From Gemmatimonadaceae bacterium (GTDB lineage Bacteria > Gemmatimonadota > Gemmatimonadetes > Gemmatimonadales > Gemmatimonadaceae): DNA of 64,000 bases. How positions within the stretch are numbered: position 1 is the stretch's first letter; every line of letters begins with the position of its first letter. The stretch is taken from contig JBHYGA010000004.1 in NCBI GenBank assembly GCA_051859245.1, forward strand, positions 932,030-996,029, given 5' to 3'. This document shows, piece after piece, positions 42,481-60,996 of the stretch. Below the pieces are notes generated by a model. It had not been told where the DNA came from, ran no database searches, and saw only the letters and a list, made by a program, of their open reading frames with translations. The position numbers and the translations under genes were made by a program.

Positions 42481-45400
42481 TGTCTGAACAGCATGAAGAC
42501 CGCGCTGCCGCTGGCGGCAGCGTTAAAGGTGCGGCGGAGCAGGGCGGTGGACTCAGTGGCGTCGCCATTCGACGCCCGGTGTTCACCACCATGATCATGC
42601 TCGGACTGGTGGTGCTTGGATTGTTCGCGTACCGCGGACTGCCTATCGACCAGTTCCCGGATGTCAGCATTCCCGTGGTATCGGTGCAAACCACGTATCC
42701 GGGTGCCAGCGCCGAAACAGTTGAGCGCGAGGTCACGCGCCGACTGGAAGAAGCGTTCAATCCGGTGCAGGGCGTGAAGAAACTCACGTCCATCTCGCTG
42801 GAAGGTGTGTCGCAGGTGACGGTGGAGTTTGACCTCGGACGTGATGCCGATGCCGCATCGCAGGACCTGCGTTCCAAGATTGAACTCATTCGCCGTGATC
42901 TGCCAACGGATATTGATCCGCCGATTGTGCAGAAGTTCAACTCGTCAGATCTGCCGATCATTTCGCTCGCGCTTCGCTCCAAAACCGTTCCGCTCAGTGA
43001 ACTCACCACGATTGCCGACGAACCACTGCGCCGCCGCATGGAAGCGGTTGCTGGAGTTGGTGAAGTGCGCGTGTCGGGCGGTGTGCGTCGGCAGGTGAAT
43101 GTGTATCTGCAGCCGGAGCGCATGCGCGCACTCGGCATTACCGTGCCCGAAGTCATGGGCGCGTTGCAGCGGCAGAACCTCGAAGTGCCCGCGGGACGTC
43201 TTGAGCGCGGGTTGGCCGAACAACTCGTGCGCGTGACCGGACGTATTGACGACCCGGCGGGCTTTGAGCAGGTGATCATTGCCACCCGTGGTGCGAATCC
43301 CGTTCGCTTGCGCGATGTGGCGCGCGTGGAAGACGGTGTGGAAGAAAAGCGCTCGGTTGCACTCGTGAATGGTGAAGTGGCCGTTGCGCTGGACCTGCTC
43401 AAGGTCTCCGGCGCGAACACAGTGGAAGTGGCCGACGGTGTGACCGAAGCACTCGACGAAGCGCGGGCGCTGCTCCCACAAGGCGCAACGTTGCAGGTCG
43501 TGCGCGACAACTCCACCATGATCCGTCAATCGGTTGATGACGTCATCCATGAGCTGGTGCTTGGCGCGATTCTCACCGTGCTGATCGTGATGTTGTTCCT
43601 GAACGACATCAAGGCCACCGCCATTACGGCACTCGCGCTTCCGGTGTCGGTGATTTCGGCCTTCGTGCTGATGGGCATTCTGGGCTTCACGCTCAACGTT
43701 CTTACGCTGCTGGCCCTGTCGATCTCGATTGGTATCCTAATTGACGACGCGATTGTGGTGGTGGAAAACATTGTGCGTCGTCGGCAGATGGGCGACGACG
43801 TCTTCACTGCCGCACGCGAAGGCACACGCGAAATTGTGCTGGCGGTGTTGGCCACTACACTCTCCATCGTAGCCGTGTTTGTGCCGGTCGCGTTCATGAA
43901 AGGCATCATTGGCCGGTTCTTCTTTGAGTTCGGTCTGACTGTTGCGTGGGCGGTGCTCGTGTCGCTGTTCGTGTCGTTCACACTCACGCCAATGCTCAGC
44001 GCGTGGTGGGGTGTGTCGCCGCATACGGGTGAAGGCGGCAATGTGATCACGCGTAGCATCAGCCGTTTTAATCGCTGGTTCGACCAGCAGGCGCTGCGCT
44101 ATCGCGGACTGCTGCGGTGGGCGCTCGGACACCGTCGCAGCACCGTGTTGATGGCCGTGGTGGCGTTTGTCGGCGCCATGGCACTCTTCCCACTGGTTGG
44201 TGGATCGTTTTCGCCTGACAGCGATGACGGCGAGTTCATTGTAAAGTTTGAAACGCCGCAAGGTGCCAGCTTGCCGTACACGCAGGCCAAGGCCGAGCAG
44301 ATTGATGCGATGCTCACGGCCATGCCGGAAGTGTCGTACGTGTATACCACGGTGGGTGCGGGTGCGATTGGTACGGTTACCACCGGCGAAGCGTATGTGA
44401 AACTCGTGCCGTCCAACGAACGCACGCGTTCGCAGCTTGAGATGATCGCCGTCGCGCGAACCGCCATGCAAGACGTGGCAGGTGTGCAGTCGCAGGTTCT
44501 TTTGAGCGGCGGTCTCGGTGGCCCAGTGGCGCCGCTGCAGGTTGAACTGCGCGGACGTGATCTCGATACCCTCACCATGATTTCGGCGCAGGCGCTGGCC
44601 GCTGTTCGCGCACTCCCTGAAGTTGTGGATTCGCGCACCACACTTGGTGCACCGCGTCCCGAAGTACGCGTTGATCTGGATCGCGATGTCGCCAATCGTG
44701 TCGGACTCGATGTGGGTTCGCTCGCCGCGACAATTCGACCGCTCTTTGCGGGCGAAGTCGCTACACGTTGGGAAGATCCTACGGGTGAAGAGCGTGACGT
44801 GCGCGTGCAGCTCTCGCCCGAGTCGCGCGTATCGCGTACGGATCTGGCGCAGATTCCCGTGCCCACGGCAAGCGGCAATGCAAACGGAATCGCCAGCGTT
44901 CCGCTCGGTGATATTGCGCGACTGGAAGACGGATTTGCGCCGGCCGAAATCCGTCGTCAGGATTTGCAGCGCACGGTGATTGTGGAGGGCAGCCCGGCGC
45001 CAGGCGTGTCCATCTCGGTGGCGTCGGCCAAGCTGAACGAAGCGCTCAACACGCTCACACTTCCCGAGGGCTATCGCTTTCAGCTTGGCGGCGAAACAAA
45101 GGAGCTGGCCGAAACGGGTGGGTACGTGATCGAAGCGATCTTGCTGGCTGTGGTGCTCATCTTCCTGATTCTTGCATCACAGTTTGAGTCGTTCACGCAG
45201 CCAGTGGCGATTATGCTGTCACTGCCATTGTCGTTGATTGGCGTGCTTATCGCGCTGCTGCTGACGGGCGATACGATCAACATCATGTCCATGATTGGCG
45301 TGATCATGCTCTTTGGTCTAGTCACCAAGAACGCGATTCTGCTGGTGGACAACGCCAATGAACGACGACGCGAGGGCATGCCACGATTCGAGGCGCTTAT

Positions 45401-45686
45401 TGAAGCCGGTGCGGTGCGTTTACGTCCGATCATGATGACCACATTGGCCATGATTTTTGGCATGTTGCCGATTGCGCTCGCACTTGGACAGGGCGGCGGT
45501 TTCCGCGCACCAATGGCGCGCGCGGTAATCGGCGGCCTGATCACCAGTACGGCGCTCACACTGCTCGTTGTGCCGGTCGCGTACACGTATCTCGACGACC
45601 TCGGCGCGTGGGTGCTGTCGAAAGTGCGGAGAACCGGACGTCGTGCGAACACCGCTGAAATGCCAGTTCCGGTGGCGGGTGACTAG
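42480..45686 (+). CDS. RND efflux permease (AcrB/AcrD/AcrF family)
   Basis: 1068 aa. IRRPVF, GILIDDAIVVVEN, GLVTKNAILLVD, RLRPIMMTT. Confidence 0.95.
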   Translation: MSEQHEDRAAAGGSVKGAAEQGGGLSGVAIRRPVFTTMIMLGLVVLGLFAYRGLPIDQFPDVSIPVVSVQTTYPGASAETVEREVTRRLEEAFNPVQGVKKLTSISLEGVSQVTVEFDLGRDADAASQDLRSKIELIRRDLPTDIDPPIVQKFNSSDLPIISLALRSKTVPLSELTTIADEPLRRRMEAVAGVGEVRVSGGVRRQVNVYLQPERMRALGITVPEVMGALQRQNLEVPAGRLERGLAEQLVRVTGRIDDPAGFEQVIIATRGANPVRLRDVARVEDGVEEKRSVALVNGEVAVALDLLKVSGANTVEVADGVTEALDEARALLPQGATLQVVRDNSTMIRQSVDDVIHELVLGAILTVLIVMLFLNDIKATAITALALPVSVISAFVLMGILGFTLNVLTLLALSISIGILIDDAIVVVENIVRRRQMGDDVFTAAREGTREIVLAVLATTLSIVAVFVPVAFMKGIIGRFFFEFGLTVAWAVLVSLFVSFTLTPMLSAWWGVSPHTGEGGNVITRSISRFNRWFDQQALRYRGLLRWALGHRRSTVLMAVVAFVGAMALFPLVGGSFSPDSDDGEFIVKFETPQGASLPYTQAKAEQIDAMLTAMPEVSYVYTTVGAGAIGTVTTGEAYVKLVPSNERTRSQLEMIAVARTAMQDVAGVQSQVLLSGGLGGPVAPLQVELRGRDLDTLTMISAQALAAVRALPEVVDSRTTLGAPRPEVRVDLDRDVANRVGLDVGSLAATIRPLFAGEVATRWEDPTGEERDVRVQLSPESRVSRTDLAQIPVPTASGNANGIASVPLGDIARLEDGFAPAEIRRQDLQRTVIVEGSPAPGVSISVASAKLNEALNTLTLPEGYRFQLGGETKELAETGGYVIEAILLAVVLIFLILASQFESFTQPVAIMLSLPLSLIGVLIALLLTGDTINIMSMIGVIMLFGLVTKNAILLVDNANERRREGMPRFEALIEAGAVRLRPIMMTTLAMIFGMLPIALALGQGGGFRAPMARAVIGGLITSTALTLLVVPVAYTYLDDLGAWVLSKVRRTGRRANTAEMPVPVAGD

Positions 45687-45777: not shown

Positions 45778-46386
45778 CTACAGATGCCGTGAAGCCCAGA
45801 TGAGGCGCTGCAGGATGCCGACGATCACACCGCCGGTCATGATCCACGCGAGCGTGACGTAGTGGTAGGGGAAGAGCAGGAAGAGTGAAAAGAAGATGAC
45901 CGTTTCGGTGCCGGCCACGAGACCGCGTGGCATCGTGACCGTGGTGAGTTCACCACGCGAAGTTGCGCCGGCGCCGCGCCGTTCAAGAATCGCCGAGAGG
46001 TACATCCACGACGCGGCGTTCACGAACCATGAGGCGAGCAGTACACTGCTGGCGAGCCAGCTGCTTCGCGTATCGAACGCGAGCGCAATACCGAGTGGCA
46101 TCGCGGCGTAGACCACGAAGTCAAGCAAAATGTCGAGATAGCCGCCCATGTCGGTCTGGCGATCATGCAGGCGCGCCACGGTGCCGTCAATACCATCGAG
46201 CAGTCGGTTGGCGATCCACAGTATGAGCGCGAATCGCCACGTCGCCTGGCTGGCCGCGACCGCTGCGCCGATACCGACCACGAGCGCGAGCAGGGTGATG
46301 GCCAAGGGTGAGCACCACGTACCCAGCCACTGCGCGAGTGGTGCGAGCCAGCGTTCTTTTCGAATGCGAAACCATTCGTCAAACAT
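45778..46386 (-). CDS. CDP-alcohol phosphatidyltransferase family protein (YnjF-like)
   Basis: 202 aa. Signature DGIDGTVAR...GGYLDILLD; GLVAGTET. Confidence 0.9.
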   Translation of the reverse strand: MFDEWFRIRKERWLAPLAQWLGTWCSPLAITLLALVVGIGAAVAASQATWRFALILWIANRLLDGIDGTVARLHDRQTDMGGYLDILLDFVVYAAMPLGIALAFDTRSSWLASSVLLASWFVNAASWMYLSAILERRGAGATSRGELTTVTMPRGLVAGTETVIFFSLFLLFPYHYVTLAWIMTGGVIVGILQRLIWASRHL

Positions 46387-46395
46387 TGTGGCGTC

Positions 46396-47508
46396 TCACG
46401 CAGGAAATAGGATCATGCCACGTACGTCGATGCACACAGTAACCTGTGAGCCGGTGGCCGGCACAGACATGGGGTCGATGAGCGCGTGGACCACGGCGTG
46501 AGGCAATTGGACCGCTGCCGTCGCGCTTCCTGCCCGGTGATTAATGCTGAGTACGCGGCCATCAGCGAGCGTGTGAATGTGCGGAGTGTCGCTGGCGCGG
46601 GTGTGATTCGCGGTTGACTCGCAACGTATGGCGTCGCTCCGAATGCCAAGCACAACGCGCTGCTGGTTTGCGTAGCCGGCGCTGCTCCGCGTGGGCAGCG
46701 CGCCCAGCACCGTGTCAATGCTGCTGTCGGATTCGCGAACCACTCCCTCAAACTCCTGATGCAATCCCAGAAAGCGCATCACGCCAACTGACGCTGGCGA
46801 TGCGAACAGCTCCAGCGCGGTTCCCACCTGCGCGATGGTGCGATCGAGCATGATCGCCATGCGATCGCCAAGCGACGTCGCATCATCGAGATCGTGGGTC
46901 ACGAGCAGCAGGCCGGCATCGCTCTCGGCGTGCGCCTCACGGATTGCGTCGCGCACATCACGTCGCAATACCGGATCGAGCGCCGAGAGTGGTTCGTCAA
47001 GCAGCAATACATGTGGCCTGGCGGCAAGTGCACGAGCCAGTGCCACGCGATGTTTCTGTCCACCGCTCAGTGTCTGTGGCGAGCGTTTGGCTAGCTCACC
47101 AAGGTGTAAACGTTCGAGCAGCGCCCGCACCACGCGCTCACGCTCCGCAGACGCCATGCCACGAATGGTGAGCGGAAACGCAACGTTGTCCTCTACGCTG
47201 AGGTGCGGAAAGAGCACCGGCGTTTGATGCAGATACACCGTACCGCGCGAGTGCGCGGCGACATCGGAGACGTCAATATTGCCAACGCGAATGTGTCCTG
47301 CGCTGATGGGCGTCAGGCCCGCAATCGCTCGCAGCAACGATGTCTTTCCCTCACCGGATGGCCCGAGTAACACCACGCGTTCACCACATGCCAAGCGCAA
47401 ACTGATGTCGTGCAGTCCGTGCGTGCGTGCCGCGTCACCGCGAGTATCGGGAGACGCAAACGGCACAGCCACTGCTTCAACGGAAAGCGCGTTGCCAGTG
47501 GGCGTCAT
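46396..47508 (-). CDS. ABC transporter ATP-binding protein
   Basis: 370 aa. GPSGEGKT, LSGGQKHR, LLLDEP, LVTHD. Confidence 0.93.
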   Translation of the reverse strand: MTPTGNALSVEAVAVPFASPDTRGDAARTHGLHDISLRLACGERVVLLGPSGEGKTSLLRAIAGLTPISAGHIRVGNIDVSDVAAHSRGTVYLHQTPVLFPHLSVEDNVAFPLTIRGMASAERERVVRALLERLHLGELAKRSPQTLSGGQKHRVALARALAARPHVLLLDEPLSALDPVLRRDVRDAIREAHAESDAGLLLVTHDLDDATSLGDRMAIMLDRTIAQVGTALELFASPASVGVMRFLGLHQEFEGVVRESDSSIDTVLGALPTRSSAGYANQQRVVLGIRSDAIRCESTANHTRASDTPHIHTLADGRVLSINHRAGSATAAVQLPHAVVHALIDPMSVPATGSQVTVCIDVRGMILFPA

Positions 47509-48323
47509 GTTGCAAGTGCGTCAGTGCGTCGCGCGCCAAGGCGCAAGGCGGCCAGTGCGGCAATCGCCGGTACAATGAGCAACAGGGCGCCTACAGCCGC
47601 CGGTCGATCCTGCCCGGCACGAACAAGCGTCAGTACTTCAATTGGCAACGTGCGCAGCGCTCCTCCGCCAACCACAAGCGTCAGTGCGACCTGCGTCCAC
47701 GAGATGAGAAAGGCAATCGCAAGTGCTTCGGCAATTGGTGCACGCAGCGACGGGACAATTACGCGTGTCCATGTGTTCCACGCCGACGCGCCGAGCGTAC
47801 GCGCTGCTTCTTCTGGTTCCGAGCCGCGGGTAGTAAACACGCCAAGAAAGAGCAGAGACACGTAGCCCACAGCGGGAACGGTGTGCGAAAGCCACACGCC
47901 AACCGACGTGCCCGCTATTCCCAGCCACAGTGTCAGAATCTGCAGACCCGCACCAAGTGCAATCGGCGGCGCTGCGACCGGAAGAAACACGAGCGCCGCG
48001 GCAACATGTCGCCAGCCACCGCGCAAACGGGCGAGTGATCGCCCAACAGGCAACGCGACCGCAACCGCAGCAACGGCGGTCGCCAGGCCCAACGCGACGC
48101 TCGTTACCGCGGCGCCTCCGAGCGAGCCGCTAACCACCGCACGCCATGACGATCCCGTAAAGCCAGACGGCAGGAGCGCGGGCCACCGCCAGCTCTCGCT
48201 GAATGATTGCACGAGCAGAATCGCAAACGGCAGGAACGTTGAAATGGCCAGTGCGGCAATCGCGACAACGCGCCATGGCGATGTGTCAGCTTTTGCATGC
48301 GCAATCTGCACAGGCGCCGTCAT
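47505..48323 (-). CDS. ABC transporter permease
   Basis: 272 aa. EEAARTLGAS EAA loop; WRWPALLP. Confidence 0.9.
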   Translation of the reverse strand: MTAPVQIAHAKADTSPWRVVAIAALAISTFLPFAILLVQSFSESWRWPALLPSGFTGSSWRAVVSGSLGGAAVTSVALGLATAVAAVAVALPVGRSLARLRGGWRHVAAALVFLPVAAPPIALGAGLQILTLWLGIAGTSVGVWLSHTVPAVGYVSLLFLGVFTTRGSEPEEAARTLGASAWNTWTRVIVPSLRAPIAEALAIAFLISWTQVALTLVVGGGALRTLPIEVLTLVRAGQDRPAAVGALLLIVPAIAALAALRLGARRTDALAT

Positions 48324-49174
48324 TTAACGAGTGAACCCCAACGCGCGCGTGCGACTTCGTGCGCGGCCACGGCAATCGCGGCCACGCCGAGTGCAACCAA
48401 CGCGAGTCCGTACGCTTCTCCGCGGCGCGAAAGCTGCGGGTCGGCGAAACGCTCCATGGTGAGTACCGGAAGCGGGGCCGGATCAATCGGGGCCAACAGC
48501 ACCGCCGACTCAAAGCTTCCGAATGCAAACACAAACGTTGCGATCACTGCCGGAAACAAGCCGCGCCACAACAACGGCCAGGTGATGGTGCGCGCCACAA
48601 CGCTCGGCGTTGCTCCAAGCGTGCGGGCTGCGTCTTCCAGATCGCGAGCAATGCCCGCGCGAAGGGCGATGGCTACAACGGCGAGAAAGGGTAGTTCCTT
48701 CCACGCAAGCGAAAGAATCAGCGCGACACCGCCTGAATCGTACACAAGCGCGGGCATGTTCGCGGGTGCGTCAATCACGCCGGCGCCGTGCAGTGCCCGG
48801 GCCAGCAACCCACTTTGACTGAGCACAAAAAGTGCGGTGGCCGCCGCGACAAGGTGGGGCACAGGAAGCGGCAGTGTGGCCAGCGATCGAGCCACACGAT
48901 CGCTTCGTGAGTGTGACGGAAAGAGCAGGGCAATGGCGACTGCAGCAGCGGCCGCAATCACGGTGCTGGTACACGCCACATAAAGCGACCAGGAAGTTGC
49001 GCGCCACGTGGTGCGATCGCCGAGCACGAAGAACAGGCGATCGGCATCGGCCACGGACGAGGCTCCGGCACCGGTGAGTCCGAGTACCGCGAGCGCGGAG
49101 TAGGCCACGCCGAAAAGCACCGGCGCGGCCACAAGCATCGCGATCAATAACGGAAAAGGCACACGCCGAGGCAT
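48320..49174 (-). CDS. ABC transporter permease
   Basis: 284 aa. PHLVAA, WKELPF, EDAARTLGAT EAA loop. Confidence 0.9.
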   Translation of the reverse strand: MPRRVPFPLLIAMLVAAPVLFGVAYSALAVLGLTGAGASSVADADRLFFVLGDRTTWRATSWSLYVACTSTVIAAAAAVAIALLFPSHSRSDRVARSLATLPLPVPHLVAAATALFVLSQSGLLARALHGAGVIDAPANMPALVYDSGGVALILSLAWKELPFLAVVAIALRAGIARDLEDAARTLGATPSVVARTITWPLLWRGLFPAVIATFVFAFGSFESAVLLAPIDPAPLPVLTMERFADPQLSRRGEAYGLALVALGVAAIAVAAHEVARARWGSLVK

Positions 49175-49199
49175 GTCCGAAGTTACGCCATGGGCGACA

Positions 49200-50447
49200 C
49201 TACGGCTCGCGAGGCGATGCTCCGGCGCGCGCCCAGTCTCGCCAATCCGCGTTCAGTCGCTCGTGATAACGCGGCGACACCTCAGGAACGGCGTATCGGC
49301 GCAGTGTGTCCCGAGGGATCGCGCGCGGATCCGCCTCGGCGTTCGCAAAACGTGAGCGCCACGGCTCAGGGACCGTGCGAACATTCAGCACCGTGCCATC
49401 TGCCCACACCTCGGGCTTTTGTTTCTCAAATTGCGCTTCGGCAGACAGGAGCAGGTTTGCGACCACCATCGCGCCGGCCGGATTGGGCGCATTCAAGGGA
49501 ATGCCCACGAAATGTGAGTTCGCAATGGTGCCGTCGCGCAATACCAGTGCACGAGCTGTACTCGGCAGTACCCCCTGGCGAATCTTGTTGACCACGTCGT
49601 GTTGATTGTTCGACATGGAAAAATCGATCTCTGAGTTCGCGAACAGGCGATGCATGGCCGCGACATCCGGCGGATACGTGCTGCCGTTTCGCCAGAAGCT
49701 GCTGCGCAACGAGTCGAGCCACGCAAACACCACCTGTCGACCAAGGTCGTAGCGCTCATCGGTGAACCCATTGGCGAACGCGCTTGCGCCTCCACCGCGG
49801 GCGTACATCAGCATCTTGAGAAACGTGATGCCGGAGAATCCTTGATCGTGTGTGAACCGGCCTGGATTCGATCGAATCCAGGCTGAGAGTTCGTCGAATG
49901 ACCGCGGCGGATTGGGTGTGCGTACGGTGTCGTAAATCAGCGCAAACTGCACCGAGCCCCACGGACTCTCAAAGCCGGCTGGGTCCTGCTCAAAGTCGCG
50001 TGCAATGATGGGCGACGCAGAGTCGATGAACGCGGCGTTCGGCAACACGCCCGCCCACGGCCCTGCCAGCAGCGACTCCGCGCGCAGATTGGAGAATGTC
50101 TCACCGTTGATCCACACGAGGCTCGCGGTGCCGCGTCCACGTCCCGCTTCGCGCTCGAGCACCAGCTGATTCACGATCTCCGGTCCTTGTCCCTCAACCG
50201 CTTCAAGGGTGATGCCGTACATCGTGCGCAAACGCGGGGCGAGCCAACCGTCAACGTAGGCGTTGATGGCCGGATCGCCTCGCCACTTGCGCCATGTCAC
50301 GGTCGTGCCGCGCGCGCGTGCTTCCACGCTGTCCCACGGCAGTGCGGTGAGTTGCGCAACTTCGGTCTGTGCCGATTGCTCTGCAGCGTCACCCGCGCAC
50401 GCCACGAGACACGTGGCGAGAAGAACGGATCGCAACACAGGGAACAT
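49200..50447 (-). CDS. ABC transporter substrate-binding lipoprotein (YnjB-like)
   Basis: Start set at ATG 50447. Lipobox LVAC, ARGTTVTW..WRGDPAIN, LVWINGETF, ESPWGSVQF, NPGRFT, GAMVVANLLLS. Confidence 0.85.
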   Translation of the reverse strand: MFPVLRSVLLATCLVACAGDAAEQSAQTEVAQLTALPWDSVEARARGTTVTWRKWRGDPAINAYVDGWLAPRLRTMYGITLEAVEGQGPEIVNQLVLEREAGRGRGTASLVWINGETFSNLRAESLLAGPWAGVLPNAAFIDSASPIIARDFEQDPAGFESPWGSVQFALIYDTVRTPNPPRSFDELSAWIRSNPGRFTHDQGFSGITFLKMLMYARGGGASAFANGFTDERYDLGRQVVFAWLDSLRSSFWRNGSTYPPDVAAMHRLFANSEIDFSMSNNQHDVVNKIRQGVLPSTARALVLRDGTIANSHFVGIPLNAPNPAGAMVVANLLLSAEAQFEKQKPEVWADGTVLNVRTVPEPWRSRFANAEADPRAIPRDTLRRYAVPEVSPRYHERLNADWRDWARAGASPREP

Positions 50448-50488
50448 CGGAACGCATGATCGCTTACTCAACAACGTGCGCACGCGCC

Positions 50489-53311
50489 TCAGAACAACCA
50501 ACGTGCTGAGAACTGCAGCTGACGCGGCGGTGCGACGGCTGAAGTGACAATCGGATCACCGGGGCGTCCCACCTGCGTGCGCGTACCGCCGCCAGGCAAT
50601 CCATTGGCGTATCCACCAGCGTTGGTGCTGTTGAACAAGTTGAACGCGTCGGCACGCAGCTCAATGCCCTGATTTCTCACGCGCAGTTCGTACGATACAC
50701 TCGCGCTGGTAAACAGCGCACTCGGCAGCCGCTCACCGTTGCGCGACACGCCAAAGAAACGATCCTGGTTGCCGAGAAATCCGTTGCCGAACGTATCACC
50801 AGAACCATCAAGATCGCGGAAGAATGCGATGCGATTAATCGGCTGACCCGTCTGCCAATCCGCTACACCAGAGAGTGACAGCCGCCGGAATCCGGTGTAC
50901 GTGGCGCGCATGGCAATGCGATGACGGCGATCGTTGATCGCGTCGGCCCACTCGGCATCAAAGTTGTTGCCCTGTGTGGCGTTAAAGTTGATGTCTTCGG
51001 TGTTTGTGCGCGCGCGTGACCAGATCCAGTTTGCATCAATGAGCCACGCGTCGTCAGCGGCCCAGCGAGCGGTCGTGTACAAACCGGCGTATGTGGAGCG
51101 CCCACCACTCTCGGTGGTGGTGCGACGGCGGAAACCACCGTTTACCGGCGCCACTGGTCGGAATGCGTCGCCGGTGGCGACGGACAGGCTGATCGTGTCT
51201 GCGGGTCCGATGCCGCGCGTGCTGGCATTCAGATCCCACGAACGCGGCAGGTTGCGCGTATCGACGTACACAGCGTCCATGCCAATCGCGACTCGTGTGC
51301 CGATCTGCTGTTGCCAACCGCCGGTAAACTGGCGGCTCATCGGCTGCTCAAGTCCGAGCGCAAACAGCTCGCGCACTTCGCCCGGTGGCAACTGACTGCG
51401 ATCAAGTGTCGCCGTGCGCGGGCCCTGCAGATACGCCGGCGCGTTCGCACCGTCAAACGTGACCGTTTGATTGCCATCGGGTCCGAACTGAATGGCGTCG
51501 GAGTACACGGCGTACGGAAACTTGCCGGCGTACAAACCAGCGCCCGCGCGAAGGACGGACGACGGACCAACGAGCCAGTTGACGGAGGCGCGGGGTTGCC
51601 AGTTGTTCAGATCAGGCGAACTCTGTCCACGCGATGTGAGGTCGTCGTAGTCCCAACGCACGCCAAGTGTGAGCGTGAGGGCGGGCGACAGACGCCACGC
51701 GTCTTCAATGAACGCTCCAACAAGTGTTTGCGACAAGTCGACCTGTTTCTGTGCGGCGTCTACGGTGTAGCTGAGCACGCGTACGTTCTGCGGCACGTCG
51801 GCAAATGCGAACCGATTGCCGCGCTGCGGAATATTGCCTTCGTCAAGTACCACATAGGAGCCGGACGGATTCGTTTGCGAGCCGGCGAGTCTGAAGTTCG
51901 AGCGCCAGCCATCGCCGCCAATTCGCAACTGATGTTTGTCGCCGATGAACGTTTCAAACACGTTGCGCAACTGCAGCTGCGTTTCGGATTCGTCAAACAC
52001 GAAGTTACTTGAACCCACCACGCCGACCGACACGGTATCAATGCCTTGTACGCGACGAATCGTGACCTGGGGAATCGAAAAACTGCTCTGCGCCGGCGGA
52101 AAATTCCATCGGAACGAACCAAGTTGCGCCGCGAACACGTTGCTGGCGCGCCCGTTGCGCAAGGCTGATCGATGCAACAACGCAGTGACCGTGCCAATGC
52201 GCTGCGTGACGATGTCCGCCTCAGGCGCAACAATGCCGCTGCCTCGACCTTCGCGATCAATCCGACTGGCCGCAATACGCAACGTGGTGGTCTGATTGGG
52301 CGACCAGCCATGATCCACACGCCCGAACGCCTTCACCGTGCCACGCACCTCTCGGCCAGTAAACGTAGTGTTCGCGGTTGATGCAATGCGATCTTCGTTC
52401 TCGTTGGTGTATTCGATGGCTCCAAACACAAATGTTTGATCGGCGCGAAGCGGACCGCCGCCGGCCGCACCAATCTGTGAGCGACGGAATCCTTCCTGCG
52501 CGCGACGGAAGTCTTCCGGATTCTGGCCTGCCGGTACAATCGCGGAGCGCGCATCGACCGGTAATCCCGGGCGATTGTACACAAACGCCTCACCCTGCCA
52601 CGTCGAACCACCCGAGCGTGTTTCCATATTCACCACGCCGTTCGAACTCCGCCCGAACTCCGCGCCGTACGTGTTGGCCAGCACGCCAAAGCGCTGCAGT
52701 GCGGACAGTGGCACTTCCACGCGTGCGCCGCCGAGAAAGCCTTCGTTGTTCTCAAGTCCGTCGAGCGAGTACTGCGTGTACAACGCGTTCGCACCATTGA
52801 TGGACAGGCGCGGTGCGTCGCCGAAGAATCCGGTCGCGGTGGAAACGCCAGGAATGGTGTACGCGAGCGCGATGGGATCACGCGAGTCGGTCGGCAGTCG
52901 CTCCAGCTCAGTGCGCTCCACTGTGCCGCCAGTAGTTGCGTTTTCGGTGTTCAGCAGCGGGCGTGGCAACGGGGCCACCACAGACACAACACCCAGCGAA
53001 GCAAGGGGGCGAAGTGTGAGTGCGATGACCCGTGCATTGGCCTTGTTGGATGCGTCAATGCGAACCGAGTCTGGCAGAAAGCCGAGCGCGCGCACCACAA
53101 CGAAGCCTGCGGATGTATTCGCAACGGCGAGTGCAAAACGACCGGCTGAGTCAGACGTTGCTGCTTCAGTCAGCATCGTAATCTGCGCGCCGCGTATAGG
53201 CAGTCCTGCTGCCGAACGCACGACGCCTGTGACAGCGCCGGTGGTTTGCGCAGAGAGAATGAACGGCGCGCACAGCGCGGCCACGAACAGTGCACACTTT
53301 GGCAACATCAT
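50489..53311 (-). CDS. TonB-dependent receptor (Oar-like) with CarboxypepD_reg N-domain
   Basis: 940 aa. Signal peptide, YSLDGLENN, YGAEFGRSSNGVVN, LTLTLGVRWDY, DAFNLFN, C-terminal PRQLQFSARWLF. Confidence 0.92.
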   Translation of the reverse strand: MMLPKCALFVAALCAPFILSAQTTGAVTGVVRSAAGLPIRGAQITMLTEAATSDSAGRFALAVANTSAGFVVVRALGFLPDSVRIDASNKANARVIALTLRPLASLGVVSVVAPLPRPLLNTENATTGGTVERTELERLPTDSRDPIALAYTIPGVSTATGFFGDAPRLSINGANALYTQYSLDGLENNEGFLGGARVEVPLSALQRFGVLANTYGAEFGRSSNGVVNMETRSGGSTWQGEAFVYNRPGLPVDARSAIVPAGQNPEDFRRAQEGFRRSQIGAAGGGPLRADQTFVFGAIEYTNENEDRIASTANTTFTGREVRGTVKAFGRVDHGWSPNQTTTLRIAASRIDREGRGSGIVAPEADIVTQRIGTVTALLHRSALRNGRASNVFAAQLGSFRWNFPPAQSSFSIPQVTIRRVQGIDTVSVGVVGSSNFVFDESETQLQLRNVFETFIGDKHQLRIGGDGWRSNFRLAGSQTNPSGSYVVLDEGNIPQRGNRFAFADVPQNVRVLSYTVDAAQKQVDLSQTLVGAFIEDAWRLSPALTLTLGVRWDYDDLTSRGQSSPDLNNWQPRASVNWLVGPSSVLRAGAGLYAGKFPYAVYSDAIQFGPDGNQTVTFDGANAPAYLQGPRTATLDRSQLPPGEVRELFALGLEQPMSRQFTGGWQQQIGTRVAIGMDAVYVDTRNLPRSWDLNASTRGIGPADTISLSVATGDAFRPVAPVNGGFRRRTTTESGGRSTYAGLYTTARWAADDAWLIDANWIWSRARTNTEDINFNATQGNNFDAEWADAINDRRHRIAMRATYTGFRRLSLSGVADWQTGQPINRIAFFRDLDGSGDTFGNGFLGNQDRFFGVSRNGERLPSALFTSASVSYELRVRNQGIELRADAFNLFNSTNAGGYANGLPGGGTRTQVGRPGDPIVTSAVAPPRQLQFSARWLF

Positions 53312-53414
53312 GATGGAGGCGTTCGGAATGGTTCCGCGGCACAGCGTACCGCTGGATCAAAGACAACGGCGTGGTGGATGTACGATCCAAAGGCTGAGCC
53401 CGGATCTCCCGCGG

Positions 53415-53696
53415 TCAGCTACCCTCGTAGCCTTCCGCGCGCAGCCTGGCCAGTACGCCATCGCGTGCGGCGGCCGCGCTGTCGGGTGTATCGCGCACCT
53501 GAGCCAGTGCGTCAATCACAATCTGTCCAAAGTTTGCGTGCGGAAAGCAATGAGAGCAGCGAGCCACATGCGCGCGCACTGCCGCTTCATTTGCGGTATC
53601 GAGGTGGCCGTCCAGATAGTCCCACAGCATGCGGACGGCGGTTCCGCAATCGAGTGACGGCGTGTCGAGCGCGGCGTGATCAGTATTCGAAATCAT
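53415..53696 (-). CDS. Cytoplasmic zinc-binding (ZAS, zf-HC2) anti-sigma factor
   Basis: 93 aa. C...LWDYLDG...HVARCSHC; no TM; ATGA-coupled to the ECF gene. Confidence 0.9.
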   Translation of the reverse strand: MISNTDHAALDTPSLDCGTAVRMLWDYLDGHLDTANEAAVRAHVARCSHCFPHANFGQIVIDALAQVRDTPDSAAAARDGVLARLRAEGYEGS

Positions 53697-54271
53697 GTGG
53701 ACTCCTCCTCAGCGTGTACCGGCACAATGCCGGCTTCTCGCGCGTGTTCAAGCAACGCCGTTTGCAGCAGACGGCGCGCACGGAACAGTCTTGAGCGCAC
53801 CGTACCAACGGGAATGTCGAGCACTGTAGCCGCCTCGGCGTACGGCAGCTCCTGCAGCTCTACCAGTTCGACAACTTCGCGGAACGCTTCGGGCAAGGCC
53901 GCGATGGCGAGATTGATGGCCGGACGAAGGTCGGCATCACTGAGGCGCTGCAGCACATCGTCCGGTGCACCGAGCGAGTAGTTGTCGTCGGCCAGCGCCT
54001 GCAAAGTATCATCTTCTACCGGCACAAGACGCGCGTCTCGCGGCGCCCGTTTCCGCCACGCATTGCGCGCAATCGTGAACAACCACGCCCGCGCCTCACT
54101 GCCCTGTCTGAACGACTCCCAGTGTCGCCAGGCGCGCAAATACGTCTCCTGCACAAGATCTTCCGCGTCGGACTCATCGCGCGTGAGTGAGCGCGCGAAT
54201 CGTGTTACGTCGGGAAGCCAACGCAGTGCGATGTCGTGAAAGGCGATGTGTTTGTCAACCGGTATTTCCAC
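53693..54271 (-). CDS. ECF RNA polymerase sigma factor (SigH/SigR-like)
   Basis: 192 aa. AEDLVQETYLRAW, RAWLFTIARN, LDIPVGTVRSRLFRAR. Confidence 0.93.
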   Translation of the reverse strand: MEIPVDKHIAFHDIALRWLPDVTRFARSLTRDESDAEDLVQETYLRAWRHWESFRQGSEARAWLFTIARNAWRKRAPRDARLVPVEDDTLQALADDNYSLGAPDDVLQRLSDADLRPAINLAIAALPEAFREVVELVELQELPYAEAATVLDIPVGTVRSRLFRARRLLQTALLEHAREAGIVPVHAEEEST

Positions 54272-55004
54272 GCCGTACCCTTTGCACCAATGATGGTAAG
54301 AACGACAACGCGAGCAGCAGTACAGACGCGATAATCAAGTTGGTGCGCGCCGTAGCCGACGCGCCACTCACGCCGCCCACGAGACTGCCCGCGAAATACG
54401 TATAAATGATCGTGCCCGGCAAAATTCCCAATCCGGTCGCCGCGATGTACGGACGGATCGGGATACCCGACAGCGCGGCGGTAAAGCTCAACGCATTGAA
54501 CGGAATCACGGGCAACAGGCGCAGCCGAAACAGCGTGCTGAATCCACGTTTACCAGCCAGCAGGTCGAGTCTGGCAGCCTGGCCACCGAGCAGTTTCCGC
54601 AACGCGTCCCCACCCAACGTTCGTGCGAGCAGGTAGGTGCCAGTGGCCCCGATCGTGGCGCCCAGCCAGTTCAGTCCCGAGCCGAGCGCCGTGCCAAACA
54701 GAATGCCACCGGCAAGGGTGAACGGGGTCGCCGGTAAGCCAAACGTCGCCACCACGATGTACACCAGCACAAAGACCACGTGGATGTACGGGATCTCGCG
54801 CGCTCGCTCGATCGCCGCGAGCAACGCCGCCGGATCTCGTAGATCGAGCAGACCGGCGCGTGAGGCTGCGTAGCCGGCCGCCGCGAGTACCAGCGCGAGT
54901 ATGCCGAGGCGCACGAACGCGGATGAGCGCGAGGATTTCGCGGGTGCTGCCTGCGCTGCACCCGCAGCGTCATCACGTTGCATCTCGCTCACCGTGTCAC
55001 TCAT
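54255..55004 (-). CDS. TVP38/TMEM64 (DedA superfamily, YdjX/Z-like) membrane protein
   Basis: 249 aa. FTLAGGILFG, LRLLPVIPFNALSF, GILPGTIIYTYF. Confidence 0.9.
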   Translation of the reverse strand: MSDTVSEMQRDDAAGAAQAAPAKSSRSSAFVRLGILALVLAAAGYAASRAGLLDLRDPAALLAAIERAREIPYIHVVFVLVYIVVATFGLPATPFTLAGGILFGTALGSGLNWLGATIGATGTYLLARTLGGDALRKLLGGQAARLDLLAGKRGFSTLFRLRLLPVIPFNALSFTAALSGIPIRPYIAATGLGILPGTIIYTYFAGSLVGGVSGASATARTNLIIASVLLLALSFLPSLVQRVRRGNTG

Positions 55005-56533
55005 GTGGTCGCCCGAAAGAACGCCGCGAACACACGTTTGGCGGTCGGTGTGAGTCGGCCTCGATTGTACTGATCAGCAGCGCGACCAAAGATCGCGGCG
55101 CGCGTTGGATACGGGCGGATGGTTCCGCCGAACGAACGCAACCCATCACCGCGCTTCATGGCGCTCACCACCTCGCCGATCATGTCACCGGCACCTTCGC
55201 ACACGAGCGTGGCGCCCAGAATCTGATCGGTTCCACGCGCGAGATGCACGCGAAAAAATCCTTCGGTATCGCCTTCGAGGATGGCACGATCATTGTCGTG
55301 CATGGGCATCGTGATGGTGTCAAACGCCGTGCCCGCACGTTCAAGCGCGTCGCTGGTTTTTCCAACGTGCGCCACTTCAGGTGAGGTGTACGTCGTCCAT
55401 GGAATGATCAACGAGGATGCCTTGCCGCCACCCAACCCAAAGAAGAGCGCGTTCGGCACCGCGAGTCGCGCTTGCGCATCGGCGGCGTGCGTAAACTGGA
55501 ACGAAGAGGACACATCACCAATCGCAAACACACTCGCGTTGGTGGTGCGAAATTTTTCGTCAACGGTTACGCCAGTTTTGGAGAACTGCACACCAGCGGC
55601 GTCAAGACCGAGACCATCGGTGTTTGGCGTGCGACCTGCAGCGACCAGCAACGCGTCCACCGTAATTGCAATGCGCTGTCCGTCGCGTGTGGCTTGCACC
55701 GTTGTGACGTCGCCCTGGCGCTCCACCTGAGAGATCGTGACGCCATGGTGAAATACCACACCATCGCGCGCGAGCGACGCCTCCACCACACGGGCGGCAT
55801 CCGCGTCATCGCGCGGCATCGCGCGCGCATCGGCGTTGAGCACGGTGACGGTGCTACCGAACCGTGCAAACGACTGCGCGAGCTCGAGACCAATTGGCCC
55901 GGCACCAATGATGGCCAGTCGCTCCGGCCGTTCGGTGAGCGAAAAGACGGTCTCGTTGGTGAGCGGTCTGGCTTCAGCAAGACCAGAAATAGGTGGCAGC
56001 GCTGCGCGGGCGCCCGTCGCAATGATGGCGCGTCGAAAACGCAGCGTTTGCCCAGCAACTTCGATAGCATTACGTCCGGTAAACGTTGCGTCACCGAGGA
56101 ACACATCCACACCGAGCGAAGCAAACCGCGGCGCACCGTCCACTGGTGCAATGCCGGCGCGCAGCCTGCGCAATCGCTCCATCACAGCGCCAAAATCGCC
56201 GTCGCCGACTGCTGCCGGTCCGCCAAACTCGGCCTGCGCCGAACGCGCCTGATGCCACGCACGCGATGCGCGCAGCACGGCCTTCGATGGAACACACCCC
56301 ACATTGAGGCAATCGCCACCGAGCAGATGACGCTCGATCAGCGCCACACGTGCGCCGAGTCCGGCGGCAATCGCGGCGCTGACCAGCCCCGCCGTTCCGC
56401 CACCGATCACCACCAGTTGATACCGGTCGGCGGCGGTGGGATTCTGCCACGACGGCGGATGGACGTGCGAAATGAGTGCACGATTGTGCACGTCATCGGG
56501 AAGCATGAGGGGGGTGTCGGCCATGTGTGTCAT
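55001..56533 (-). CDS. Class I pyridine nucleotide-disulfide oxidoreductase (MerA/LpdA-like, lacks MerA metal-binding cysteines)
   Basis: 510 aa. IGGGTAG, GGDCLNVGCVPSK, IGAGPIG, AIGDV, RPYPT; no N-terminal HMA domain and no C-terminal CC. Confidence 0.9.
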   Translation of the reverse strand: MTHMADTPLMLPDDVHNRALISHVHPPSWQNPTAADRYQLVVIGGGTAGLVSAAIAAGLGARVALIERHLLGGDCLNVGCVPSKAVLRASRAWHQARSAQAEFGGPAAVGDGDFGAVMERLRRLRAGIAPVDGAPRFASLGVDVFLGDATFTGRNAIEVAGQTLRFRRAIIATGARAALPPISGLAEARPLTNETVFSLTERPERLAIIGAGPIGLELAQSFARFGSTVTVLNADARAMPRDDADAARVVEASLARDGVVFHHGVTISQVERQGDVTTVQATRDGQRIAITVDALLVAAGRTPNTDGLGLDAAGVQFSKTGVTVDEKFRTTNASVFAIGDVSSSFQFTHAADAQARLAVPNALFFGLGGGKASSLIIPWTTYTSPEVAHVGKTSDALERAGTAFDTITMPMHDNDRAILEGDTEGFFRVHLARGTDQILGATLVCEGAGDMIGEVVSAMKRGDGLRSFGGTIRPYPTRAAIFGRAADQYNRGRLTPTAKRVFAAFFRATT

Positions 56534-56587
56534 ACGCTCAGACGTAGTGTGACGGATGCCTGAGAGTTCCCTGCGGCGTCCGATGCG

Positions 56588-57199
56588 TCAATCCACGCGT
56601 GGTTCGGACTGTCGCCAGCGATACACATCTTCCGGCGTATCCAGATCCATCGCCCCGCCCGGAAGTGGCACGGCGGTCTCGTTACCGCGCAGCAGCGAAC
56701 GCGCACCGCGATCTCCCTTGAGTGACGCGAGCAACGGCCATTCGCTCCGCGGCCAGATGGCCGGAATGCCACAGACATCATCGTACTTGGACACCACGCG
56801 TCCACCATGGTTCGCATGCGCATCCAGCAGCGCGCGCACATGTGCAACATCAACGGACGGTTGGTCGCAGGTGAGCAGCATCATGGCGGTGGCAGCGCTC
56901 GGTTCGACCACCTGCAGACCCACGCGAATGGATCCCGACATGCCCTCGGCCCATTCGGCGTTCTCTGCGTAGGTAACAGATGCGCTATCGTGCAGCGCAT
57001 CACGAAGCACCTCGCGCACACTCTCCGCATACGCGCCGAGTACGACGACCACTGGCGCGCATCCACCAGCGATTGCATCACGCACCAGTCGGACCAGCAA
57101 CGCCTCACCACTGGCATCCCGCAACAGTTGCTTGGCCGATCCCATCCGACGAGACGCACCAGCCGCCAGCAGCACCGCCGCCACGGAGCGAGTGCTCAC
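56588..57199 (-). CDS. MocA/MobA-like NTP transferase (molybdenum cofactor cytidylyltransferase-like)
   Basis: Start set at GTG 57199, next to the XdhC stop. LLAAGASRRMGSAKQLL, CDQP, GDRGAR, DLDTPED. Confidence 0.88.
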   Translation of the reverse strand: MSTRSVAAVLLAAGASRRMGSAKQLLRDASGEALLVRLVRDAIAGGCAPVVVVLGAYAESVREVLRDALHDSASVTYAENAEWAEGMSGSIRVGLQVVEPSAATAMMLLTCDQPSVDVAHVRALLDAHANHGGRVVSKYDDVCGIPAIWPRSEWPLLASLKGDRGARSLLRGNETAVPLPGGAMDLDTPEDVYRWRQSEPRVD

Positions 57200-57200
57200 G

Positions 57201-58403
57201 CTATCGACGCTCGCGCGGAGCAACCGTTGGCGTGGCGCAGGTCGCGTTGGTCTGTTCGCTGGCCAACTTTGGTGTGTCGGTGCGTGTGTGCAGCGGCGCC
57301 TGACGCTCGCGTAGCGAACCACCCGGTCGCGACTGCAACACTGCTTGCATCTCTGCAATCGCGGCCAGCGCCACCTCGTCTGGTGACTCACCGCCGATGT
57401 CGAGTCCGATCGGTGCAAAGAGACGCGCCCGATCACGCGCGCGCATCGCCGGCTTTGCGTCGAGCAATGAGCGCACCAAACGACCCGCGCGCTGACGTGA
57501 GCCCAACACACCCACGTATGGTGAGTCGGTGGCCAATGCAGCCTGCAGCCACGCCAGATCGGCCTCGAAGCGGTGGGTACAGAGCGCGAACATCGTGCGC
57601 GCATCGACCGGACACAAGTGCGCCTTCATCGCATCCGACGCGTTCTCTGGCGTAATGTGCACGAGCTGAACAGCGCCTGGCAGCGCGAGTTCATTAAGGA
57701 GTGCGGTGCGATCGTCAATTACGGTCACACGCCAGCCGGTGGCGACCGCGATCCGGGCAAACGATTCCGCACCGCGTGACGCACCAACCACGATGACATG
57801 CACCGGTGGTCGTACCGGTGCGCCAAACGTTCGCTCGAGTCCGCTCGACGTGGTTTGTTGTCCGAGATACGGTTGATCCGTATGTCGCACCGTATCCTGC
57901 ACACGTGCATTCGTTTCTGATCGTAGTGCCAATGCTGGCGCTGCGTCGCGAACAAACACGGTTCGGCCAATGCATGAAGCGTCCGCAGACTCGATCGTGG
58001 TGAGCAACACACCACTTTGTCGCAACTCGGCGCTGCTGCACGCCGCTTCGAGTTCGCGCAGGTCTGGGAGCGGCGCAAGCATGATATGCGCGACGCCTTC
58101 ACAGCCGGAGCCAAAACCCCAGATGGTTTCGAGATCTTCGCGCAGATCGTACGCCATGAGTGAGGCTTCACCACGCGCGCACACCGCAGTGGCGCGCAGG
58201 GCCACATCGCCTTCAAGGCAGCCACCGCTGATCGCGCCGGCGAGCACGCGCCCCTCTGCGTCGCACAGCATGCGCGCACCGGGCTGGCGATATGACGATC
58301 CGTCAACCGCCACCAGCGTGGCGAGCGCCAGTGGTACGCCCGGACGCGAAACAACCGCTGAGCGCGCCGCTGTAATCAGCGCGACGAGTTCGGTGTGCGT
58401 CAC
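57201..58403 (-). CDS. XdhC/CoxI family molybdoenzyme maturation factor
   Basis: 400 aa. GSSYRQPGARM, ISGGCLEG, GCEG, YVGVLGSR, APIGLDIGGESPDEVALA. Confidence 0.92.
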   Translation of the reverse strand: MTHTELVALITAARSAVVSRPGVPLALATLVAVDGSSYRQPGARMLCDAEGRVLAGAISGGCLEGDVALRATAVCARGEASLMAYDLREDLETIWGFGSGCEGVAHIMLAPLPDLRELEAACSSAELRQSGVLLTTIESADASCIGRTVFVRDAAPALALRSETNARVQDTVRHTDQPYLGQQTTSSGLERTFGAPVRPPVHVIVVGASRGAESFARIAVATGWRVTVIDDRTALLNELALPGAVQLVHITPENASDAMKAHLCPVDARTMFALCTHRFEADLAWLQAALATDSPYVGVLGSRQRAGRLVRSLLDAKPAMRARDRARLFAPIGLDIGGESPDEVALAAIAEMQAVLQSRPGGSLRERQAPLHTRTDTPKLASEQTNATCATPTVAPRERR

Positions 58404-58406
58404 GAG

Positions 58407-60899: not shown

Positions 60900-60996
60900 G
60901 TGAGGGGCTCCAGAGGTGGGGGCAGCAGGTCTACCCATGAAGCCTACAGCATCTCGACGCCGACGTCACGCCCGTGAGAGTGATTATCTTCAAGGG

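Follow-up and report, generated by a model that had tools for sequence, protein, structure and literature searches.

The window examined here is a stretch of 64,000 nucleotides from a Gemmatimonadaceae soil bacterium (GenBank assembly GCA_051859245.1, contig JBHYGA010000004.1, positions 932,030 to 996,029 of the forward strand), whose 4.7-Mb genome is 99.87% complete. It carries a cluster of ten genes encoding a MerA-like flavoprotein, a TVP38/DedA membrane protein, an extracytoplasmic function (ECF) sigma factor, a zinc-binding anti-sigma factor (ZAS), a TonB-dependent receptor, a YnjB-type substrate-binding protein (SBP), the two permeases and the ATPase of an ATP-binding cassette (ABC) importer, and a YnjF-type CDP-alcohol phosphotransferase. 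We read this cluster, tentatively and with a probability of roughly 0.45, as a diderm, receptor-fed edition of a widespread gene set (YnjBCD importer, YnjF transferase, TVP38 protein and MerA-like flavoprotein) that would import a solute and attach it to a lipid. The conserved unit is a predicted TonB receptor, YnjB-type SBP, two permeases, ATPase and YnjF-type transferase. The arrangement recurs in scores of other genomes, far beyond chance, and the gene set is probably a coherent, mobile, multi-phylum system found in Gemmatimonadota, Acidobacteriota, Chloroflexota, a spirochaete, and enterobacteria.

Gene neighborhoods were compared in two sets of loci. One genome per species was scanned, giving 384 stretches that encode SBP relatives, and the best 80 loci were analyzed by tblastn with the window proteins (E<=1e-5 to 1e-8, coverage >=45-50%); short or divergent genes, such as that of the ZAS, may be missed at these thresholds. 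The second set was anchored on a transferase-monooxygenase fusion (P0127) and added Chloroflexota, Spirochaetota, Poribacteria, and more Acidobacteriota. Without nine duplicate contigs, the two sets comprise 147 unique contigs (2.13 Mb). Both sets are anchored, are limited to their best 80 loci each, consist mostly of fragments of metagenome-assembled genomes (MAGs), and include related genomes, so the locus counts are not independent events. The closest relatives of the window are Gemmatimonadaceae MAGs. Taxon labels are those of the depositors; binning errors probably explain two of them, the Streptomycetaceae label of a 1.4-kb contig and the Bifidobacteriaceae label of a contig identical to one from Vicinamibacterales.

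Gene order ties the importer to the transferase. Among 65 loci with at least 3.2 kb of upstream flank, the receptor gene is immediately upstream of the SBP gene on the same strand in 55 and present somewhere in the locus in 63. The transferase gene was found in 45 of the 48 loci with at least 4 kb of downstream flank, directly after the ATPase gene in 41; tblastn did not find it in L027, L045, and L074. In some sub-lineages the transferase gene is ahead of the receptor gene instead, and in Acidobacteriota the receptor gene is convergent, just after the transferase gene, which indicates that the importer-transferase linkage survives rearrangement. Transferase and ABC importer occur together in 56/90 Gemmatimonadota contigs, 13/15 from Acidobacteriota, 12/32 from Chloroflexota, and 1/4 from Spirochaetota. 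No TonB-dependent receptor was found in the 32 Chloroflexota contigs, and in the diderm version the predicted receptor is among the conserved parts.

The phyletic profile points the same way. Of 151 evenly sampled genomes of the phylum, five, the host included, have YnjB over its cut-off. YnjF-type proteins match strongly (E<=1e-50) in these five only, each time within about 4 kb of the SBP gene; one further genome has a distant transferase paralogue (35% identity). Importer and transferase therefore appear to travel together as a rare accessory, probably mobile trait. In one relative, ATPase and transferase are naturally fused in a single polypeptide (P0121). The original prediction, made from the DNA letters alone, had joined the importer and the transferase in one pathway and had named their co-occurrence in other genomes as a check; gene order, profile, and fusion all uphold that association, and together they fit a scheme of import followed by attachment through a phosphodiester.

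Apparent transferase-receptor fusions (P0122-P0125) were not counted with this evidence. Only one of 13 junctions is in frame without a stop, and we regard these proteins either as a peculiarity of their lineage or as run-on gene calls. The in-frame case (L137:840-4259) has transferase and TonB receptor in one open frame, with the receptor signal peptide right after the transferase; proteins of this type form the four clusters, and the other 12 junctions examined have stops or frame changes.

The flavoprotein and TVP38 genes make up a second recurring element. The flavoprotein belongs to the PRK06370.1-3 subfamily of FAD-containing oxidoreductases (NF004991; 671 bits, cut-off 620), and the membrane protein to the TVP38/DedA family (82.7 bits against PF09335, cut-off 33.9). 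The latter was also considered as the undecaprenyl-phosphate transporter UptA and rejected (20 bits against a cut-off of 250). Of 25 loci with 8 kb or more of flank on either side, 18 have both genes no farther than 10 kb from the importer, in varying order and strand, and a flavoprotein gene is present in 14/32 Chloroflexota contigs. Flavoprotein genes over the family cut-off occur in 29 of the 151 genomes, and matches at E<=1e-100 in 67. All five importer genomes have such a gene at E<=1e-100, four of them over the family cut-off (the fifth, G097, scores 502 bits against 620), and it adjoins the cluster in four. A word search among longer TVP38 relatives found 15 TVP38-reductase fusions (e.g., in Cyanobium, Aphanothece, and Methylococcaceae) and 48 TVP38-DUF547 fusions (P0131-P0178), the latter mostly in Gemmatimonadota. 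The reductase fusions agree with the literature, in which COG0398 DedA proteins are said to be fused most often to PF07992/PF02852 (PMC10127716). The pair is read as a separable, wider module that has apparently docked repeatedly onto the importer and transferase in Gemmatimonadota, Acidobacteriota, Chloroflexota, and a spirochaete.

ECF sigma factors paired with a ZAS are the third element. The sigma factor matches TIGR02937 at 96 bits (cut-off 42.9). The adjacent anti-sigma factor matches zf-HC2 at 37.8 bits and contains HVARCSHC within the pattern C-x26-H-x3-C-x2-C, a HxxxCxxC motif from which redox sensing is predicted. No transmembrane segment is apparent by eye, and the protein has the size of RsrA and RshA, so it is read as soluble. 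The H-x3-C-x2-C motif and an upstream cysteine (in LDC) are kept in 21/21 ZAS homologues. Outside Gemmatimonadota, sigma factor and ZAS were found together in none of the phyla sampled in the 147-contig set.

A candidate promoter, GGGAAY-N17-A(C/G)TnGTY, precedes the flavoprotein gene in the window and in six near-relative loci with the order flavoprotein, TVP38, sigma, ZAS; a looser pattern matches at the same place in L010. Over the 147 contigs a relaxed motif has 39 matches, of which seven are upstream of the flavoprotein gene in sigma/ZAS loci; another three precede the receptor gene where the available flank shows no sigma/ZAS. Scans for terminators and sigma-70 promoters gave nothing above shuffled sequences, and no terminator was found in the ZAS-receptor gap. 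The weight of the motif lies in its positional conservation, because its genome-wide frequency is at the level of chance, and no regulon can be read from the motif alone. Since it is upstream of the flavoprotein gene, with no convincing copy before the receptor gene, the sigma factor most likely autoregulates the flavoprotein-TVP38-sigma-ZAS genes. The proposal that the whole cluster is under redox control thus stands in part: a conserved ECF promoter precedes its first gene, but the sigma/ZAS pair occurs in a minority of relatives, the promoter is not demonstrably upstream of the receptor operon, and the flavoprotein and TVP38 form a wider, separable module. Elsewhere in the host genome (G000:C4:572588), a perfect GGGAAC-N17-ACTAGTC is just upstream of a gene for a secreted protein with a GYDPVAYF...GGYC motif, which is reminiscent of YHS-domain proteins. 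The sigma factor may act on this gene as well, or the match may be due to chance.

The cluster could alternatively consist of two or three independent units side by side, with a thiol-stress unit (sigma factor, ZAS, flavoprotein, TVP38), which would by itself protect or repair the membrane, next to a nutrient-uptake operon (receptor, importer, transferase) and no shared substrate. The flavoprotein occurs far more often than the importer (in 29 of 151 genomes against 5), the conserved promoter precedes the flavoprotein gene only, and a 103-nt gap separates the ZAS and receptor genes. Flavoprotein and TVP38 are missing from 7/25 well-flanked loci, and the cyanobacterial TVP38-reductase fusions (seen as proteins, without their gene neighborhood) also fit a unit of their own. 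However, flavoprotein and TVP38 recur beside the importer and transferase in four phyla, in varied orders and orientations, and in Chloroflexota redox genes lie between the genes of the two permeases. The presence of a flavoprotein-type gene in every importer genome, next to the cluster in all except one, also argues against separate units. We consider independent units somewhat unlikely, though deserving of serious attention.

CDP-alcohol phosphotransferases share the motif D-G-x2-D-G-x2-A-R-x8-G-x3-D-x3-D. The window enzyme matches PF01066 at 44 bits (cut-off 22), and its catalytic motif DGxxDGxxAR..G...D...D is intact, reading DGIDGTVARLHDRQTDMGGYLDILLD in translation. A search of E. coli K-12 returned YnjF as the sole match, which places the enzyme in the YnjF type. 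Against NCBIfam it is below every cut-off; its nearest named families are inositol-phosphate-using enzymes, and the equivalog cut-offs for phosphatidylinositol-phosphate and archaetidylinositol-phosphate synthases were missed by a wide margin (NF040950, 54.9 bits against 180; NF045883, 30.1 against 170), so both identities were rejected. The subfamily is small (of 1.84 billion representative clusters, 148 match at E<=1e-30), and an ESM Atlas search returned generic CDP-alcohol transferase clusters only. Lone transferase loci in Chloroflexota and Poribacteria were considered as a clue to the pathway and set aside; their neighbors are heterogeneous, with no common biosynthetic theme. In two Caldilinea contigs, a gene for a 362-365-aa radical SAM protein (L131:8421-9518 and L173:8421-9509) precedes a lone YnjF-type transferase gene by about 0.5 kb, with both genes on one strand. 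A Pfam search, the only one made with these proteins, gave Radical_SAM alone; in L173 a MerR regulator gene is next.

Such an enzyme need not make a membrane lipid. Its product could be a soluble phosphodiester or a modified envelope polymer, or it could work in the reverse direction and free the head group of an imported phosphodiester. The nearest named families include DIPPS, whose product is soluble, the only solved relative by sequence is 4mnd (E=1.7e-5), no NCBIfam cut-off is reached, and a YdjM/phospholipase-C-like hydrolase is encoded alongside in 11 Chloroflexota contigs. However, the clusters show no recurrent cytidylyltransferase as a source of a soluble CDP-alcohol; the partners are lipid-related instead, TVP38 generally and a PlsC-like acyltransferase in nine contigs. 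On this balance a non-lipid product is quite unlikely.

The import proteins were assigned by Pfam and NCBIfam profile searches, as were the other window proteins, and each family name given in the original prediction was confirmed. The SBP belongs to the YnjB family (NF008633, COG4134; 382 bits, cut-off 203). The ATPase matches ABC_tran at 116 bits; its best NCBIfam matches are WtpC, PhnT2, and PotA, none over cut-off, and its length resembles that of the best-matching MalK/PotA/WtpC-type ATPases. The receptor matches OMP_b-brl_4 at 162 bits (cut-off 30), Plug at 28.9 (cut-off 23.9), and TonB_dep_Rec_b-barrel, with CarboxypepD_reg as its N-terminal domain. A FecA-type transducer acting with FecR/FecI was considered and rejected: the Pfam search of the receptor found no STN signaling domain, and the anti-sigma factor is only 93 aa with no membrane segment by eye.

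A predicted model of the SBP (pLDDT 82, pTM 0.80) was searched with Foldseek, which placed it among PhnS, PotD/PotF, FbpA, AfuA, and TbpA at <=19% identity, matches that are to be read at class level only. On this model the ligand class is no narrower than “small, polar or charged”. The cluster might accordingly be viewed as an ordinary importer for a ligand known for this SBP class (thiamine, a polyamine, a phosphonate, iron, or a sugar phosphate), with the transferase gene a passenger; the permeases and ATPase likewise resemble Mod/Cys/Pot/Phn types. However, the SBP matches no NCBIfam family besides YnjB at E<=0.001, a sequence search of PDB with it gave 0 matches, and the transferase is a most constant passenger (45/48 loci, co-occurrence in 5/5 genomes, fusion to the ATPase). 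We give an ordinary importer very little credence.

In the reading that we prefer, a solute that is scarce or bulky would cross the outer membrane through the TonB-dependent receptor; a dedicated receptor argues for an external substrate of this kind. The lipoprotein SBP and the two-permease/ATPase importer would deliver the solute to the cytoplasm, a step that draws on firm family assignments. The transferase would then link a hydroxyl of the solute through a phosphodiester to a CDP-activated partner, yielding a phosphatidyl-X lipid. This partner is most likely housekeeping CDP-diacylglycerol, since no cytidylyltransferase recurs in the cluster: among the clustered neighbor families of the two locus sets, there is none apart from the MocA-like gene seen in the 6-7 nearest relatives. 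Going by work on other DedA proteins, TVP38 may redistribute the lipid across the membrane. The flavoprotein would hold the solute or head group reduced; going by recurrent neighbors, X may bear an S, Se, or As atom that is soft and redox-active. The thiol-sensing ZAS/ECF pair would drive at least the first four genes from the promoter upstream of the reductase gene, and read-through may supply the receptor operon too.

Several points weigh against this reading. The sigma/ZAS pair is limited to 18/90 Gemmatimonadota contigs. Genome-wide, the strict promoter motif has seven matches, no more than in shuffled sequences, as expected by chance, and there is no convincing copy in the 103 nt before the receptor gene in the window. 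The flavoprotein does not depend on the importer, as its greater frequency in the 151 genomes indicates, and in one importer genome (G102) it is encoded far from the cluster. The counts of 5/151 for the importer and 29/151 for the flavoprotein take in unpublished genomes (G056 in the former, G056 and G096 in the latter), and anchor bias, the predominance of MAG fragments, and kinship affect both locus sets. Of the 31 transferase loci in Chloroflexota, 19 are without a YnjB importer over the available flank. The SBP fold narrows the ligand to a broad class only, and the roles of all cluster members are predicted from sequence.

Recurrent neighbors of the cluster give some indication of its chemistry. 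The typical Chloroflexota order is TVP38, flavoprotein, SBP, permease, FAD protein, YdjM-like protein, permease, ATPase, and transferase, sometimes followed by a SelL-like protein; alternatively, the same genes converge on the transferase gene. The two genes inserted between the permease genes (L162:5826-8122 and equivalents in L167, L169, L172, and L180) encode a 565-aa FAD protein resembling geranylgeranyl reductases and halogenases, and a YdjM/phospholipase-C-like membrane hydrolase. Over the 147 contigs, this FAD protein type occurs in 16 contigs, the hydrolase in the 11 Chloroflexota contigs noted above, a SelL-related thioredoxin-fold protein in 13, and a double short-chain dehydrogenase in six. 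Additional genes in Gemmatimonadota and Acidobacteriota encode a flavoprotein of family TIGR03169 (“N-terminal to SelD”; 11 contigs), DUF547 proteins (11), the PlsC-like acyltransferase, and a GT28-type glycosyltransferase (9). The TIGR03169 protein is over cut-off and its gene is beside that of the MerA-like flavoprotein in its 11 contigs (L013, L034, L035, L055, L059, L062, and others). A free-standing DUF547 gene also follows the transferase gene in a Vicinamibacteria contig (L163:973-1917). In Anaerolineales, the transferase is fused to a flavin-containing monooxygenase (FMO)-type enzyme (P0126-P0129; contiguous in L105 and L106) whose best NCBIfam match is ArsO, at 197 bits against a cut-off of 425. 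In both contigs with true fusions (L105:7956-9929 and L106:3400-5616), a gene for a GH42 beta-galactosidase is just upstream.

Proteins associated with the redox chemistry of soft heteroatoms recur in this list: the MerA-like reductase, the ArsO-like FMO, SQR/NDH-2-like flavoproteins, SelL-like proteins, and the thiol-sensing anti-sigma factor, together with an AhpD-like thiol protein and a rhodanese in E. coli. Their recurrence hints, indirectly, that S, Se, or As is present in the imported compound or in the head group. A specific role for selenium was rejected, as the TIGR03169 gene of the host (G000:C4:845003-846097) is 87 kb away beside tesB/fabH, and no SelD over cut-off was found in the host genome. 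Molybdenum cofactor was rejected as well: XdhC/MocA synteny is confined to the six nearest loci, and YnjE-like genes occur in just two contigs. The E. coli gene between ynjD and ynjF (ynjE) is annotated as a molybdopterin synthase sulfurtransferase and is a second neighbor related to this cofactor; the two such neighbors (MocA/XdhC here, ynjE in E. coli) are probably a coincidence.

An arsenosugar version of the pathway, which the original prediction had offered as one hypothesis, was not supported. Neither ArsS nor TIGR04282 nor TIGR04283 is over cut-off in the nearly complete host genome. The search recommended there for arsM, arsS, and TIGR04282-3 did return one of these genes, an intact arsM on another contig (G000:C1:1018142-1019008; 343 bits, cut-off 263) encoding a Cys-rich N-terminus; the TGA counted inside the match is the natural stop codon of the gene. 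Arsenosugar phospholipids and phosphatidylarsenocholine exist in nature, and with the intact arsM and the ArsO-like fusion they speak for scavenging of arsenosugars or related arsenic alcohols into arsenolipids, but we see only a slim chance of this, given an ArsO match far under its cut-off, the missing ArsS, TIGR04282, and TIGR04283, an arsM remote from the cluster, no ars genes among the recurrent cluster neighbors of the two locus sets, and the occurrence of the gene set in E. coli and in soil and wastewater lineages without evident arsenic link.

A bolder form of the preferred reading is that the cluster builds a new phospholipid class, with a scavenged S-, Se-, or As-containing head group; the lipid would be flipped by TVP38 to the outer leaflet and recycled by the flavoprotein, serving as a membrane-anchored redox buffer or sensor for the envelope under a thiol-stress sigma factor. 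This proposal is speculative and, in our judgment, improbable. If true, this lipid chemistry would account for some nine orphan y-genes in E. coli K-12, whose orphan genes include those encoding YnjBCD, YnjF, and YdjX-YdjZ. More generally, natural fusions tie importer to transferase, transferase to a heteroatom monooxygenase, and TVP38 to reductase, and the gene set could lead to a phospholipid head group not known before and to a clear role for part of the enigmatic DedA/TVP38 family, namely one of its branches.

The layout of the cluster is given in Table 1. The ten genes had been described as co-directional and closely packed, and all ten open reading frames were recovered on the minus strand where they had been placed, between 45778 and 56533. 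Five junctions are overlaps (four of 4 nt and one of 17 nt), and the other four are gaps of 9, 25, 38, and 103 nt. The SBP start was set at the ATG before the lipobox (LVAC); the longest open reading frame begins at a TTG at 50501.

Table 1. Genes of the cluster, its candidate promoter, and its flanking genes (positions in the 64,000-nt window).
Feature	Position	Strand	Families and arrangement
MerA-like FAD/NAD(P)H flavoprotein	55001-56533	-	PF07992/PF02852, NF004991; 4-nt overlap with TVP38 gene
TVP38/DedA (VTT domain) membrane protein	54255-55004	-	PF09335; 17-nt overlap with sigma gene (GTG start of sigma)
ECF sigma factor	53693-54271	-	Sigma70_r2, Sigma70_r4_2; 4-nt overlap with ZAS gene
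ZAS anti-sigma factor, 93 aa	53415-53696	-	zf-HC2; 103-nt gap to receptor gene
TonB-dependent receptor	50489-53311	-	CarboxypepD_reg, Plug, barrel; 38-nt gap to SBP gene
SBP, YnjB-family lipoprotein	49200-50450	-	NF008633; 25-nt gap to permease 1 gene
ABC importer permease 1	48320-49174	-	BPD_transp_1; 4-nt overlap with permease 2 gene
ABC importer permease 2	47505-48323	-	BPD_transp_1; 4-nt overlap with ATPase gene
ABC importer ATPase	46396-47508	-	ABC_tran; 9-nt gap to transferase gene
YnjF-type CDP-alcohol phosphotransferase, 202 aa	45778-46386	-	PF01066; last gene of cluster
Candidate ECF-type promoter, GGGAAC-N17-ACTACGTC	56541-56571	-	Upstream of flavoprotein gene; ends about 10 nt before its first ATG
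Resistance-nodulation-division (RND) efflux permease	42480-45686	+	ACR_tran, 941 bits; convergent on transferase gene, closes cluster downstream
MocA-like molybdenum-cofactor cytidylyltransferase, XdhC, S9 peptidase	56588-60938	-	Directly upstream of cluster, syntenic only in the six nearest loci; omitted from the original prediction

Mercuric reductase (MerA) is the best solved relative of the flavoprotein (5x1y, 261 bits). Both have a CxxxxC pair, and both have a tyrosine where disulfide reductases have the catalytic histidine (RPYPTRAA in the window protein, with PYPT aligned to PYLT of MerA). CxxxxC and PYPT are each present in 44 of 52 homologues of the flavoprotein; the other eight lack the motif. 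The hallmarks of MerA are a C-terminal Cys pair and an NmerA domain. The window protein ends in ...AAFFRATT without a Cys pair, has no HMA (NmerA) domain by Pfam, scores 350 bits against the 454-bit cut-off of TIGR02053, and has no mer genes nearby; identity with mercuric reductase was therefore rejected.

The SigR-RsrA and SigH-RshA systems of Actinobacteria resemble the regulatory pair. In both, a short ZAS with HxxxCxxC and no apparent membrane segment is encoded beside an ECF sigma factor, and the sigma factor drives a flavoprotein-reductase gene and itself, as the position of the promoter motif predicts here. However, the host belongs to another phylum, its regulon is putative, and its ZAS was rejected as an RsrA of the mycothiol system (TIGR03988, its best NCBIfam match; 33 bits against a cut-off of 62.5).

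In the phosphatidylcholine synthase (Pcs) route, an ABC system takes up exogenous choline, which is then condensed with CDP-diacylglycerol. To our knowledge, it is the only well-known precedent in which a head-group alcohol is imported and then phosphatidylated by an enzyme of the CDP-alcohol family. It is the closest functional precedent for what the cluster may do, by analogy only. The Pcs route differs in using another SBP family and in needing no receptor, reductase, or TVP38 protein, and the window transferase is smaller and of a different subfamily. None of the NCBIfam matches was to a Pcs or choline-SBP family, in a library that may hold no Pcs model.

The closest described layout is the E. 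coli K-12 block ydjXYZ-ynjABCD-ynjE-ynjF, whose similarity had been recognized in the original prediction. The SBP is 35% identical to YnjB over 328 residues, the transferase 34% identical to YnjF, and the TVP38 protein 39% identical to YdjZ; in both, an ABC importer adjoins a CDP-alcohol phosphotransferase. Unlike the window cluster, the E. coli block is without a TonB receptor, an ECF/ZAS pair, and a MerA-like reductase, carries YdjY, the AhpD-like YnjA, and the rhodanese YnjE, and has a fused permease (YnjC). Its regulation and orientation also differ: ydjXYZ-ynjABCD is described as one FNR-activated operon (PMC3688515), and ynjF is convergent rather than co-directional. YnjBCD is termed an “uncharacterized transport system” in another report (PMC9207381). 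A search of a paper collection on ynjB/ynjF, ydjX/ydjZ/ydjY, ynjA/C/D, and YnjBCD/COG4134/PRK11622 returned operon, regulon, and pangenome mentions and no assignment of function. Compared with these systems, what is new here is the receptor-equipped diderm edition, its predicted control by a ZAS/ECF pair, and the phyletic and fusion evidence that joins the parts.

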